A stretch of 64,000 nucleotides of DNA from Octopus vulgaris (GCA_951406725.2 OX597840.1:26846001-26910000); one strand, 5' to 3'. Shown: positions 8,345 through 61,991, numbered from the stretch's first letter. Made by a program: numbers and translations. The notes: generated by a model not told the origin, from the letters alone.

Positions 8345-8396
8345 GAAAAAACAAGTCAAGATAGAAAATGCTAAAATAATTTCATAAAGAACATTT

Positions 8397-8434
8397 CAGT
8401 ACCGGTTTCGGTCATTTTGAGACCTTTTCAACTG
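8397..8434 (-). ncRNA. Minimal type-I hammerhead ribozyme-like motif, U3-A8 core variant
   Basis: Minus strand reads CAG-UUGAAAA-GGUC(ucaaaau)GACC-GAAA-CCGG-UA-CUG: helix I CAG/CUG, 4-bp helix II, palindromic helix III ACCGGU, GUA triplet. Confidence 0.7.
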
Positions 8435-8809
8435 TAACGATTAAATAATTAAATTTAGAAAAATTAAAAGAAAAGTTTTTTTAAGGAATATTTGTTTAGT
8501 GTCCAAATATAAGTGGCATTTTCCTTGTTTCTGCCTTTCTCTGTCTCTCTTGTTTGCACTTGTGTGTTCGAGGTCGTTGTGAATTCTTGGTAGGGTAGAA
8601 GAAGAAGAAGGATGATATATATATATATATATATATATATATATATATATATATATAATTAAATAAGGGTAGAAATTGATATTAATCAATTAAAATCAGT
8701 GACTTAGCATATCTTAAAAAATCCGAAGATTAAAAGTTGTTTTACATACAAAATTTAGAGGACTGATCACTAAAAGTGGACACCGTATATGCTAAACATA
8801 GACGTCAAA

Positions 8810-9486
8810 TTGCCAAATGGAAGATAAACTGGCTGTGATAAACGCCATGAAAAATGTAAAAAGTGGTAGCAATTGCACGATCTTTTGGGATGAGTCGGAC
8901 AACTGTATCGACAATTGTACATAATGAGAACAAGATTTTAGAAGATATTAAATCTGATACCCCAGGGATGAAGAAAGCTGTCATCAATAAGAATAGAGAC
9001 AAAATCTGTGAAGAATTGGAAAGTCTTCTTTCTCTTTGGATTGTTAGGTTTAATCGTTAACGTGCTACTATAGTCAAGAAATCATTCAAGAGAAAGCACT
9101 ATCTTTGAGGATCTGAAGAAAAAATATCCAGATAAGAAAGATGTAGAGCTCAAGGCAAGTTCATGATATTTAAGATGGTTCATGAGATTTAAGCGTCCGC
9201 GAAGTACGGTAAACACCACCAAATTGTATTGGTAAATTTAGATTACTTTTGTTTTACTATACTGTATAAAAAAATAAATATTATTTGTTTGTAAGCTTAA
9301 AATAGGTTTTTTTTGACCAAGTATTATTGAAAATGCATTCATAAATAAACTAGAGAACTGGGAATGGTTATTATCGGTTTAGTCTAGAGACAAGTAAATT
9401 CGTGCAAGCCTAGCCTAGAGACAAGTTAATTTAACATAAATTGTGTCTCCTGAAACCAATTAACGACAGAGGGTGAGGTATGCCTG
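8810..9486 (+). pseudogene. Tigger/pogo (CENP-B-like) transposase remnant with right TIR
   Basis: IARSFGMSRTTVSTIVHNENKI (HTH), EELESLLSLWI, IQEKAL and LKASS...WFMRFK, broken by stops and frameshifts. End 9475-9486 is the reverse complement of CAGGCATACCTC, a Tigger-type terminus. Confidence 0.85.
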
Positions 9487-9487
9487 T

Positions 9488-9878
9488 TATATATATATAT
9501 ATATATATATATATATATATATATATATATATATATATATATATATATATGTATATATATATATATATATATATACATATATATGTATATATATATATAT
9601 ATATATATATATATATATATATATATGTATATATATATATATATATATATATATATATATATATGTATATATATATATATATATATATATATACATATAT
9701 ATATACATACATATATATATATATATACATATATACATATATATATATACATATATATATATATACATATATATACATATATATATATATACATATATAC
9801 ATATGTATATATATATATATATATATATATATATATATACATACATATATATACATACATATATATATGTATATATAT
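9488..9878. repeat. (TA)n-type microsatellite
   Basis: Seen directly. Confidence 0.97.
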
Positions 9879-11520
9879 TAAAATTATTAATTTATTAATT
9901 AATAAATTTTACGAAGTAGTTTCGGTATGGAAAAAAACATTATCGGTAAAAACTTATACAAAAAGTTTTTTTATATATATAATTATATATATAATTAAGG
10001 GTTTACCAACAAGTTGATTCGCCACATAACGAAAATTTAGAAATAGCAGCCAAAAGACAGCTAATTCTTTTAACTAGAAAATTATGACTCCACTGACAAC
10101 AATATTTGTAACTCACATAGGCAAAAAGAAGAAAGAATAACGAAATCAAACAGTCTTCGATTAATTATGGATGCGTTTCTGGATTAGTCAATAATTAATC
10201 GTAAGAGCGAAAGTGGAACGGTAGACATACATTGTAACATTCATATACACACGTATATATATGATATATATGTGTGTGTGTGTTTCTATAGGATACATAA
10301 ACACACACATGTATATATATATATATATATATATATATATATATATATATATATATATATATATATATATACACACATATACATATATATACACGTATAT
10401 ACATATTTGTACGTATATATTTATGTATATATATATATGTATGTACATATATGTATGTATATATATGCATGTATATATATATATATATATATATATATAT
10501 ATATATATATATGAATATGTGTATATATATACATTTATGTATTTATATATGTACGTATGTATGTATGTATCTATGTATGCATGTGTGTGTATATTATGTA
10601 TATATGCACATGACGGGCTCCTTTCAGTTTCCATCTGCCGTAACCACTCGCATGATTTTGGTCATACCGAGCCTGCAATACTAGACACTTGCCTAAGGTA
10701 CCGCACAATGGGACTGAACCACGAACCACGTATTTGAAGAAGCAAACTCGCTTACCACAAAGCCACGCCTGGTGAGTGTTCACATTACAGTTCGATATCG
10801 AATAAAAATTAATCAATTATAGCTGCAAAAATTAGAAACGAAAAACTGAAATTTATCTGTTGCCTGGTGCGACATTAGCAGACAGAAAATGTTAAACGTT
10901 TTTAATGTAACGTTTGAACCATTTCAGATATTTTTTCCCAGTTTACTGAAAAATTTTCTAAAAATTTGCGCGCATTCATTCTTTTATTTATTCATTTTAC
11001 GCATTTATCCTTATTAGTCTTATAATTTTTTTGGTAATTGTCGATCCAGCTAGTAGCAAAACTATGTTTCTCCCACTTAATATCTCAGTGGTATAATCTA
11101 GTAATGAAGTTTTATTTTCATTAGCGTAAAATTTACTGCGTGCACACATCATTCTTTGCTCGTTACGTGAGTCTTCATCTGCCTACGCACCGTCAGCGAA
11201 CGGTTATCGTCTACTTCTCGCCTCCAGAGACTACATGAGTTTCCAGATTAATGGAGAATTGTATTTTTAAACTACACACACACACACACAGACACATATA
11301 CATGTATGTACATATGTATGTATGTATATATGTATATATGTATGTATGTATATATGTATATATGTATATATGTATATATATATATATATATATATATATA
11401 TATATATATATATATATATATATATATATATATATGTAGGTCCCGGGTTGAGTCGGGGTTAACCACAGTAAATAAGGTACTCAATACATAGCAGAGTAAA
11501 TTAATTTATTTTGTAGAAGG

Positions 11521-59310: not shown

Positions 59311-59685
59311 TCTAGAGTCGAAATTCCGCAGTGTTTCACTAGGTGTGTTAGAAAGGGCGACTAAATCGTTCTCAAAACGCATAGTATCGTCTAAAAAATA
59401 ATAAAGGATATATTTAATGATGATGTTTATTAAACCATATTTTATTTCTGAGATATTTAACTCTTTAACAAGGTGACTTTTCTAGCTGCGTTGTAAAAAC
59501 AATGTTTTTGTAGCTTTCTCATTTTACGACGTCTGAAAGAAATAAAAAATGGCGACTTGATTAAATAAACAAGCGGTCATTTATTATTGAATAAAACAAG
59601 TCCACAGAAATTTGAAAGCATTGCTGTTTATCACTGTATCTTAGTAATTGCACAACAATATCTTTGTTGCATTTGTTGTTGTTAT

Positions 59686-60297
59686 TCTTCTTCTTCTTCT
59701 TCTTCTTCTTCTTCTTCTTCTTCTTCTTCTTCTTCTTCTTCTTCTTCTTCATCATCATCATCATCTTCATCATCATCATCTTATTATTATCATTATTATT
59801 ATTATTATTATTATTATTATTATTATTATTATTATCATCATCCTCATCATCTATGTTACTAACATTATTATTATTTATTATTATTATTATTATTATCATT
59901 ATTATTATTATCATCATTGTTATTATTATTATTATTATTATTATTATTATTATTATTATTTTATGTTTGTCTTTTGCTTTACATTTCTACAAGTTCGCTC
60001 CAAGTTTCACCCAGAGACCTCAAGGAGACAACATGTTAGAAGTTCATATTGGCGTTACGCCTAGGGTGCCGTATATTTAGTTTTCTACATAGTTATTTGT
60101 ACATCGTAATTATTTTTATTATTATTATTATTATTATTATTATCATCATCATCATCATTATTATTATTATTATTATTATTATTATCATTATTATTATCAT
60201 TATTATTATTATTATTATTATTATTATTATTATTATTATTATTATTATTATTATTATTATTATTATTATTATTATTATTATTATTATTATTATTATT
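59686..60297. repeat. (TTC)n/(ATT)n tracts
   Basis: Seen directly; interrupted at ~59960-60110. Confidence 0.93.
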
Positions 60298-60655
60298 TCT
60301 TTAAAATATTGTATGTTTTATTTAAAAAATATATTTTAGTAATAAAATATTATAACGTTTGGGAATCTAATGGCGCACGTTTGAACAAATCAGGTATGGA
60401 ATATTTGGGAAAAGCAAAAGCGAGAAACGCAGTGATAAAACAACATATATTTTAATCAATAGACTTCTATTTACATATTTAATACGTCAATATTTTATTT
60501 GTAAAGACATCGACGCGATAATGTTGATCAATATATTTCATATGCAATGCTATCTCTCTACATAAAAGTATACTGCTTCCCCAAGAGGTTTCACAAAAGC
60601 TAAATAAAAGTCTCGTGGTTAATAAACAGAATTTATTACAAGAAATATTGAAAGT

Positions 60656-61590
60656 CGACGAGCTAACAGAAACGTTACCACTCAGGGTATTTCGTCTGTC
60701 GCTATGTTCTGGGTTCAAATTCCGCCGAGGTCAACTTTGCCTTTCATCCTTTCGGGGTCGATAAATTAAGTACCAGTTATGCACTAGGGTCGATATAATC
60801 GACTTAATCCGTTTGTCTGTCTTTGTTTGTCCTCTCTGTGTTTAGCTCCTTGTGGGTAGTAAAGAAATAGGTATTTCGTCTGCCGCTACGTTCTGAGTTC
60901 AAATTCCGCCGAGGTCAACTTTGCCTTTCATCCTTTCGGGGTCGATAAATTAAGTATCAGTTATGCACTAGGGTCGATATAATCGACTTAATCCGTTTGT
61001 CTGTCTTTGTTTGTCCTCTCTGTGTTTAGCTCCTTGTGGGTAGTAAAGAAATAGGTATTTCGTCTACCGCTACGTTCTGAGTTCAAATTCCGCCGAGGTC
61101 AACTTTGCCTTTCATCCTTTCGGGGTCGATAAATTAAGTATCAGTTATGCACTAGGGTCGATATAATCGACTTAATCCGTTTGTCTGTCTTTGTTTGTCC
61201 TCTCTGTGTTTAGCTCCTTGTGGGTAGTAAAGAAATAGGTATTTCGTCTACCGCTACGTTCTGAGTTCAAATTCCGCCGAGGTCAACTTTGCCTTTCATC
61301 CTTTCGGGGTCGATAAATTAAGTATCAGTTATGCACTAGGGTCGATATAATCGACTTAATCCGTTTGTCTGTCTTTGTTTGTCCTCTCTGTGTTTAGCTC
61401 CTTGTGGGTAGTAAAGAAATAGGTATTTCGTCTACCGCTACGTTCTGAGTTAAAATTCCGCCGAGGTCGACTTTGCGTTTCGGGTTCGATATGTGAAGTA
61501 CCAGTTGCGTTTTGGGATCGGTCTAATCGACTGGCTCCCCTCCCCCAAAATTTGGGGTCTTATGCCTAGAGTAGAAAAGAATATTCTAAA
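60656..61590 (+). mobile_element. SINE family A tandem array, four 184-bp units plus a diverged fifth
   Basis: Units start at 60687, 60871, 61055, 61239 and 61423. Confidence 0.93.
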
Positions 61591-61903
61591 CGGCAAAGGC
61601 GACGAGCTGACAGAAACATTAGGACGCCGGGTGAAATGCTTAGCGGTATTTCGTCTGTCTTTACGTTCTGAGTTAAAATTCCACCGAGTTCGACTTTGCC
61701 TTTCGAGATCTATAAATATATATATTATTGCACTGCGGCTATTTTAGACGGCCGTAATACAATTATATCTTGCCATCCTTGTTACTTATTTGCTTTTGTT
61801 CACATACACATACATATGCACAATCTATATGTATATACATAGACACATACATACATATATATATATATATAATCAAAATAAGCAACAAGTATATCCGAGG
61901 TAG

Positions 61904-61991
61904 AGTGGTACAACTGTTTCATGCTACTTCATTTTATTAAACACTGTAAGTATTACATCAGTTTTAAAATGTCGAGCAATCTTCAGTCACT
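61904..61991 (-). ncRNA. Hammerhead ribozyme-like motif with enlarged helix II (homolog of 50301-50387)
   Basis: Minus strand: AGUGA-CUGAAGA-[59 nt: uUGCU...AGCAu]-GAAA-CAGUUG-UA-CCACU, followed by the tail ...ttgttgcttattttgat(ta)n shared with the 50.3-kb copy. Confidence 0.75.

Follow-up and report, generated by a model that had tools for sequence, protein, structure and literature searches.

Hammerhead islands in a 64-kb stretch of the Octopus vulgaris genome: probable 3′ ends of Penelope-like elements inserted at TA repeats

Introduction

What are the twelve hammerhead-like folds scattered along 64 kb of Octopus vulgaris DNA, and what ties them to the (TA)n microsatellites beside which they lie? 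The stretch (GCA_951406725.2 OX597840.1:26846001-26910000, 64,000 nucleotides, here called the window in its whole length) belongs to contig C27 in an assembly that measures 2.8 Gb and has some 30 large contigs. The stretch has 33% GC, and simple repeats make up 35% of it. A first-pass annotation had read the folds as solo or truncated pseudo-long terminal repeats (pLTRs) of several lineages of Penelope-like elements (PLEs). The analysis described here makes it very probable that ten of the twelve islands are the hammerhead-bearing 3′ ends (pLTRs) of five PLE families with coding copies elsewhere in the genome, that the other two belong to a related short family, likely non-autonomous, and that all were likely inserted by target-primed reverse transcription at TA repeats already in place. 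The observations on which this reading is based are links to open reading frames (ORFs), precise 3′ ends at (TA)n, variable 5′ ends, pLTR-ORF-pLTR tandems, inverted pairs and optional tails.

Repeat families in the window

All 12 sites exist, and each lies within a member of a repeat family that spans the hammerhead. Six families are represented: A, with two old subfamilies, B, C, D, E and F. The twelve folds stand as folds, not as independent sites, since 11521- and 11657+ together form a single inverted insertion, one arm each, and the events therefore number eleven. Three fragments without hammerhead and one inverted tail piece had gone unnoted. The elements are given below by position in the window (numbers beginning with L designate loci fetched from the genome).

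8337..8614, minus strand: family F, Neptune-type PLE 3′ end, 5′-truncated; U3-A8 core from 8431 and palindromic helix III, running out into (TA)n; matches the ORF-bearing L131 copy at 87%
11435..11610, minus strand: family C (Hydra-type) arm with a tail of about 70 nt; core at 11565; the tail runs into (TA)n and is contiguous with the ORF start in L234
11609..11724, plus strand: family C, tail-less arm of the inverted insertion shared with 11435..11610; core at 11663
18088..18292, minus strand: family B mini-element with a canonical core at 18211 and a broken helix I; its 3′ end has no TA tract
19950..20141, plus strand: old copy of the A lineage with a U6 core at 20018 and a broken helix III; matches family A at 73% over 127 nt
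20914..21019, plus strand: family B 3′ fragment without hammerhead, by family match
28904..28997, plus strand: family A 3′ fragment flanked by TA tracts, no hammerhead; matches family A at 96%
33063..33235, plus strand: old copy of the A lineage with a U6 core at 33127 and damage in helix II; matches family A at 78% over 91 nt
33280..33509, plus strand: family D (Hydra-type), young 5′-truncated copy directly behind the TA tail of the 33063..33235 element; canonical core at 33398, palindromic helix III; 99% to the ORF-bearing L201
42200..42408, plus strand: solo pLTR end of family A (Neptune-type) with intact helices and a U6 core at 42277; matches the intact L093 element at 91%
42895..43103, plus strand: family B mini-element with U4C in its core at 42973 and a mismatch in helix II
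47630..47712, plus strand: short copy of a family C subfamily with a TA tract on either side; canonical core at 47655
50175..50244, minus strand: inverted family E tail piece, joined to the 5′ end of the 50243..50420 copy, by sequence comparison
50243..50420, plus strand: family E (Hydra-type), 5′-truncated copy; canonical core at 50306, palindromic helix III; 3′ untranslated region (UTR) linked to an ORF in L183/L335
52077..52170, minus strand: family A 3′ fragment without hammerhead, by sequence comparison
61868..61996, minus strand: older copy of the E lineage with a canonical core at 61986 and a damaged helix I; matches family E at 82%

Core and helices are intact in six copies (8397-, 11521-, 11657+, 47649+, 50301+ and 33394+); of these, 8397- has the U3-A8 covariant core, and 11521-, 11657+, 47649+ and 50301+ have a U10.1-U11.1 mismatch. 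The copy at 42272+ is intact apart from its A6U core. The other five are decayed: helix I is broken in 18181- and its first pair in 61904-, 20014+ has U6, a G at position 17 and a broken helix III, 33123+ has U6 and a damaged helix II, and 42968+ combines U4C with a mismatch in helix II. A palindromic helix III, previously ascribed to most of the folds, is perfect in 7 of the 12 copies, whereas the three sites of family C have an ordinary 4-bp stem with an 8-nt loop. The opinion that the families share little outside the core needs correction for 18181, 20014, 33123, 42272 and 42968, which share one hammerhead with 73-89% local similarity and are thus not unrelated families. Families A and B have a common hammerhead and weak flanking similarity.

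Motifs of this kind might be expected to arise by chance in low-complexity AT-rich DNA. A relaxed type-I hammerhead descriptor gives 18 hits in the window, 8 of them at the noted sites; a core mismatch is present in 11 of the 18, and 40 block-wise dinucleotide shuffles of the window yield as many as 15 hits of that sort. The folding energies of the single motifs are unremarkable as well (z from -2.15 to +1.03, all 12 copies). On the other hand, the count of hits without core mismatch exceeds that of the shuffles (7, with 0.48 on average and 3 at most in the shuffles), and exact motif patterns have 37,349 (A/B), 6,165 (C) and 2,329 (E) matches genome-wide, compared with none for reversed controls. 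The helices of A and B are paired in 86.5% of cells, as against 16-42% in slid controls; a C-G/G-C swap in helix I is found between the two families, and coordinated changes occur in each of the three helices within the E lineage. Family evidence, covariation and the ORF links described below refute chance folds as an account of the islands, and the probability left to that account is negligible. Six of the seven mismatch-free hits are noted sites. The seventh, at 44034, has a canonical core, helices of just 3, 3 and 2 bp and no family match, and is probably itself a product of chance.

Elements are also found stacked in each other's TA tails, an A-lineage copy and then D at 33063-33509, and elsewhere A with C and B with C (L086, L116, L231), which helps to explain the local clustering.

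Coding parents of the families

The window contains no Penelope-like ORF (tblastn), as had been noticed at first sight. Elsewhere in the genome, however, five of the six families are physically linked to ORFs for a reverse transcriptase (RT) with a C-terminal endonuclease, and the assignment of the islands to solo or truncated pLTRs of several PLE lineages is thereby supported. The ORF is full length in family A; the copies linked to F, C, D and E are partial or broken.

Copies of the 42272 island (family A) have an exact common 3′ end and variable 5′ ends, and one of them reaches into the coding region. A protein search for family A returned 23,999 first-look candidates, which may include other families; 120 were scored, all at least 95% identical. 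Six long loci carry frames of 1,106-1,214 codons. In four of the six (L092, L093, L095, L096) the arrangement is a pLTR-ORF-pLTR tandem, a 964-residue RT and endonuclease frame being flanked by two hammerhead pLTRs. Five intact ORFs show 8-15 differences per 2,880 nt (0.3-0.5%), and the same 10-nt 3′ end followed by TA closes 23 of 30 ORF loci. Pfam recognizes RVT_1 above its cut-off and GIY-YIG weakly. With DKG, a CX4CxxC linker and CCHH (the last read by eye) in its predicted protein, family A is Neptune-type by the criteria set out in PMC8557442. In family F, ORF, UTR and hammerhead are contiguous in L131, and the Neptune marks are the linker and, by eye, CCHH, the DKG region not having been recovered. 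Family F shows an inverted copy and a one-sided tail, family A inverted copies but no long tail. The family A frame continues for about 100 low-complexity codons past the endonuclease before the stop, with a length that varies among copies (L092-L097). A search for an intron in the pLTR/5′ UTR found no joints in the contigs of four runs of uncertain type, which are unable to show starts or ends.

Families C, D and E are Hydra-type by the motifs of their predicted proteins: DKT, RWR, CxCX5C and CxH in C, CxCX5C and CxH in the C-terminal part of D, DKT and, by eye, CxCX5C in E. A Nematis-type affiliation was given up on these diagnostic motifs, which are Hydra's. In family C, tail, ORF, 2.4-kb UTR, hammerhead and TA are contiguous in L234/L215, about 4.7 kb separating the ORF start from the hammerhead, and L237 holds a second ORF copy. 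The family D hammerhead stands 2.1-2.5 kb behind the endonuclease in L199, L201 and L203. In family E the ORF is followed by a UTR that is 91.5% identical over 1,521 nt to E copies (L183/L335), and an E-like hammerhead lies 660-820 nt behind the endonuclease in L307; a further candidate link, in L327, was rejected because the homology is not contiguous. An inverted 5′-truncated copy and a one-sided tail were seen in each of the three families.

Triple D copies on contig C1 were considered as a PLE tandem and rejected, as they are passengers of a duplicated block of 8.15 kb. The block occurs in three tandem copies (L196-L198, 57.30-57.31 Mb) and contains D and C fragments along with parts of other mobile elements. 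ORF remnants of Neptune and Hydra type that belong to additional families (L127, L211, L232, L252, L272, L327, L338) indicate that the genome holds more PLE lineages than the six of the window.

Insertion at TA repeats

Every ribozyme strand had been said to run into a TA tract. In 11 of the 12 copies a (TA)4 starts no more than 104 nt from the predicted cut, the null rate being 0.149 per unmasked position; the claim fails for 18181-, which runs into a short mixed repeat, the next (TA)3 being 888 nt away. Targeting of (TA)n is borne out by the genomic copies, of which 220 out of 288 are followed at the 3′ end by a TA run no shorter than 8 nt (family by family, A 54/70, B 36/45, C 72/95, D 34/37, E 18/35, F 6/6); many of the loci behind these junction counts were fetched for their own family, and some overlap. 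The corresponding 5′ counts were discarded because the references stop short of the true 5′ ends. The 3′ junctions fall, moreover, on TA in the template: a stretch of 7 nt in 50 of 51 A copies and of 8 nt in 3 of 3 F copies, and at least 2 nt in 53/57 C, 21/27 E and 11/27 D copies, with nulls of 0.19-0.34. This excess is weaker when counted per distinct site. The coincidence would be explained by internal priming through annealing of nicked (TA)n.

The junctions of inverted pairs are locus-specific at the family C loci, and a 284-nt inverted C unit moving as a miniature inverted-repeat transposable element was rejected, since its junction differs among loci. On contig C1, 8 head-to-head pairs among 100 C motifs listed invert exactly at a six-base palindrome just before the core; this hot spot suggests fold-back priming of the cDNA. 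Both arms of each inverted C pair carry the same subfamily variants, by eye (L099-L109), which points to one template per insertion.

We propose the following model of insertion. The GIY-YIG endonuclease would nick (TA)n, and the nicked end would anneal to a short UA stretch of the transcript just past the pLTR, priming reverse transcription. Synthesis would mostly halt early or fold back, giving short or head-to-head copies; the pile of A/B 5′ ends some 65-90 nt upstream of the core probably corresponds to a promoter start or a strong stop. Once the element is inserted, the TA run would probably lengthen. The hammerhead would not be needed for insertion, and most scattered copies would be dead passengers.

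Several points weigh against the PLE reading or against parts of the model: (i) Pfam finds neither RT nor GIY-YIG in three Hydra-type pieces, so that their identity rests on motifs and tblastn; (ii) the E hammerhead itself is absent in L335, and the link to the ORF therefore passes through the shared UTR; (iii) no parent ORF for family B is present among the fetched loci, and no dedicated genome search for one succeeded; (iv) the covariation between A and B is essentially one inherited change (1 informative pair of 11); (v) the TA microhomology of family D is just modestly over its null; (vi) the sole biochemically studied element is reported to initiate at a site non-homologous to its target (PMC11167929), counter to annealing of the nicked end as a general rule; and (vii) 5′ ends do not pile up at the predicted cut (0/23 in A, 1/35 in B). 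This last point agrees with uncleaved RNA as the template, and cleaved RNA in that role is not supported by the positions of the 5′ ends. Internal initiation and tails are shown for the Anolis element in PMC11167929.

TA tracts as target or product

The elements had also been suspected of generating (TA)n. In that case insertions would seed new tracts and account for much of the microsatellite load of the genome. Flanking repeats measure 60-171 nt at filled sites against 17-59 nt in the empty host-repeat copies listed (five cases); the UTRs of families C and D, 2.1-2.4 kb long, are full of TG, TATG and TA repeats, so that long copies do move microsatellites; and 12 of the 64 TA loci of the window adjoin an element 3′ end. 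Longer tracts, however, may simply be bigger targets, just 19 of 390 TA loci in one sample and 8 of 142 in a second adjoin such an end, and copy count does not correlate with TA-tract count over 81 stretches (rho 0.11, p 0.33). Empty sites were sought for 159 copies; 12 matches were obtained, six of which were dropped (self-match, low-complexity or ambiguous). Five of the six informative sites already have a mixed CA/TA tract, shorter than the filled flanks, and the sixth (L050) has a 6-nt target overlap without gain of TA. Creation of TA tracts on such a scale is very improbable, and the supposed link to microsatellite load proved weak. Rather, the elements exploit existing TA tracts and probably lengthen some of them.

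Family B

Family B is a unit of about 218 nt with a fixed 5′ end. In 21 of 35 unbiased copies the 5′ end lies 77-86 nt before the core, none of the 43 copies listed extends further in shared sequence, and the 5′ motif has 1,465 exact matches in the genome. These properties, and the fact that 14 of 23 family A copies likewise begin at -64 to -93 from the core, would suit a scheme in which the islands are autonomous retrozyme-like mini-elements spreading via self-cleaved circular RNAs, with the PLE ORFs as distant ancestors; it is for B that the scheme is most plausible. Yet neither the window nor the loci listed showed short hammerhead units arrayed head to tail, and the element ends lie off the cleavage site, unlike those of circles cut there. 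In addition, U4C is present in 18 of the 29 B-type motifs listed, and the other five families grade continuously into ORF-bearing copies. Autonomous mini-elements are thus a very improbable source of the islands, and we retain insertion by PLE machinery, with family B as a likely non-autonomous member.

The ribozyme core and U6

A CUGANGA/GAAA/UH core, or its U3-A8 covariant, is found in families C, D, E, F and part of B, not in the A lineage. By hand count, the first 100 A/B motifs listed at one contig end comprise 64 with U6, 18 with U4C, 15 canonical and 3 with C6, and U6 is present in 64 of the 71 four-loop A motifs listed. Among the 64 U6 motifs position 7 is A in 21, U in 22, G in 9 and C in 12; it takes all four bases, and positions 3 and 5 stay. 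The A-lineage harvests were selected on stem II, and the 100-motif listing also on C3, G5, G8 and A9; a set of 51 copies harvested with core positions 3-7 free gave the same pattern. Intact young family A elements have U6. U3-A8, U10.1-U11.1 and U4C are natural variants described in PMC4209133 and PMC3088659, and A6C is described from phage, weak in Mg2+ and active in Mn2+ (PMC7151607). A fixed A6U core with a free position 7 was not found reported in the literature searched, which does not establish its absence from print.

The motif of the A lineage might be a dead relic, A6U having killed the ribozyme and the element spreading without it. A6 belongs to the consensus core, and A6C is described as strongly impaired in Mg2+ (PMC7151607, PMC3088659); hammerhead mutants are reported to leave in vitro insertion unaffected (PMC11167929), and Naiads are described as thriving without hammerheads (PMC8557442). 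Nevertheless, A subfamilies that are only 73-80% alike elsewhere keep the stems, C3, G5, G8, A9 and GAAA, with variation at position 7, in loop II and at position 17 of the kind shown by functional hammerheads, a comparison to be read with the selection of the harvests on stem II and, in one, on C3, G5, G8 and A9. A dead relic is a serious possibility that falls short of an even chance. Judged from the sequences, the hammerhead fold was under selection in the master elements, and the predicted hammerhead most likely cleaves weakly, as a dimer or helped by the protein of the element. Family C would be expected to cut as a monomer, and D, E and F as dimers. A bolder extension, which is tentative and rather doubtful in its entirety, would be that the still-active A lineage has kept a hammerhead with U6 instead of the near-invariant A6 through many subfamily sweeps as a conditional ribozyme depending on a dimer, its own protein or a metal ion, that A and F prime in the manner of telomerase via (UA)n:(TA)n pairing, and that B is a SINE-like (short interspersed nuclear element) mini-element on that machinery.

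Abundance

The exact motif matches in the genome total at least 45,800. Sixty 10-kb stretches at arbitrary coordinates (600 kb), in which only families A-F were sought, hold 20 hammerhead-bearing copies, which corresponds to about 93,000 per genome (Poisson 57,000-144,000); ten more stretches of C27 hold 11 copies, and nine on other small contigs 3. The A lineage is dominant, with some 24,000 motif copies by extrapolation. At 12 per 64 kb against 20 per 600 kb the window is 5-6 times richer than the sample. The very high ribozyme density announced by the first-pass annotation is overstated as to function, given a canonical core in just 15 of the first 100 A/B matches listed. About 10^5 short copies explain the hammerhead hits and many small islands between microsatellites, not the microsatellite load.

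Other features of the window

Repeat detection inside the window is dominated by microsatellites. An Rfam scan gave no hammerhead family among the 150 matches listed of 481, those listed being microsatellite-driven, miRNA-type and all under gathering scores, and a search of solved structures gave 0 hits. Tandem 184-nt units of abundant SINE-like repeats lie at 14895-15446, 22243-22607 and 24882-25700; such repeats provide mixed CA/TA linkers, where A, B and D copies insert. Fragments of a non-LTR (long terminal repeat) retroelement are located at 38991-39827, with a zf-RVT match, 57401-57787 and 58773-59144, beside (TAA)n and (AAG)n tracts. We take them to resemble an R4/Dong-type element, which would presumably be a second microsatellite-associated retroelement.

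Comparison with known systems

Hammerheads, TA targeting, inverted pairs and tails are already published for PLEs, and the system is a known one; new here are Neptune- and Hydra-type families at high copy number and a likely non-autonomous derivative. Taken as a whole, the system is ordinary Penelope-like biology in very many copies; its value lies in serving as test material. Family A supplies intact, near-identical elements of Neptune type, whereas the biochemistry cited here concerns the Penelope/Poseidon clade. The natural, fixed core change of family A bears on a question that the cited papers do not decide, namely whether cleavage by pLTR hammerheads is obligatory, and from the 3′ junctions comes a rule for TA targeting that can be tested. 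Experiments would best be directed at the U6 core and at TA-paired priming.

The minimal type-I hammerheads of metazoan PLE pLTRs (PMC4209133) agree with those of the octopus in the short helix I, the extra nucleotide after A9, the palindromic 15.2-16.2 and the U3-A8 covariation, and also in the thousands of solo motifs from truncated copies and in close opposite-strand pairs. They differ in that no U6 occurs among the motifs compared in part of that supplement, while U6 is fixed in family A; in the counts, since strict descriptors gave 2,000-9,000 per genome in that paper and the octopus has no fewer than 45,800 exact matches, the majority of them with non-canonical cores; and in having G-C where families C and E have U10.1-U11.1.

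Hydra elements, as described in PMC8557442, bear hammerheads, insert at TA and include one octopus family. The clade (including Hydra-1_Obim) shares with families C, D and E the DKT, RW(K/R) and CxCX5C linker motifs and CxxC/CxH around a conserved E and N, together with a hammerhead with a fuller helix III, insertion at (TA)n, inverted 5′ copies and tails. The octopus families are nevertheless not the published ones, for four of five hammerhead motifs are absent from the part of the PMC8557442 supplement compared and the fifth matches an element of another species; their 3′ UTRs of 2-3.4 kb stand against a tendency of Hydra elements to measure less than 3 kb overall. For Neptune, a microsatellite bias is proposed in the same paper. 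Families A and F share with that clade the CX2-5CxxC linker and the CCHH of the C-terminal GIY-YIG, and A also DKG; unlike the clade as described there, family A has a fixed U6, and A and F copies end at an internal TA stretch of 7-8 nt.

The Poseidon element PAc of Anolis (PMC11167929) likewise combines internal initiation with optional tails and AT-rich targets, and its hammerhead is reported to be protein-assisted and dispensable for in vitro insertion. PAc is reported to start at a site non-homologous to its target, whereas the octopus ends coincide with template TA, and its tails of 30-40 nt compare with 70-120 nt here. Finally, the non-LTR retrozymes (PMC7229834; bioRxiv 10.64898/2026.07.22.740005), to which reports of up to 120,000 hammerheads in the axolotl belong, are short non-coding type-I hammerhead units thought to derive from pLTRs, and family B is like a monomer of them. 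Retrozymes, however, form tandem arrays with usually canonical motifs, whereas the octopus copies are dispersed, truncated and docked at TA.

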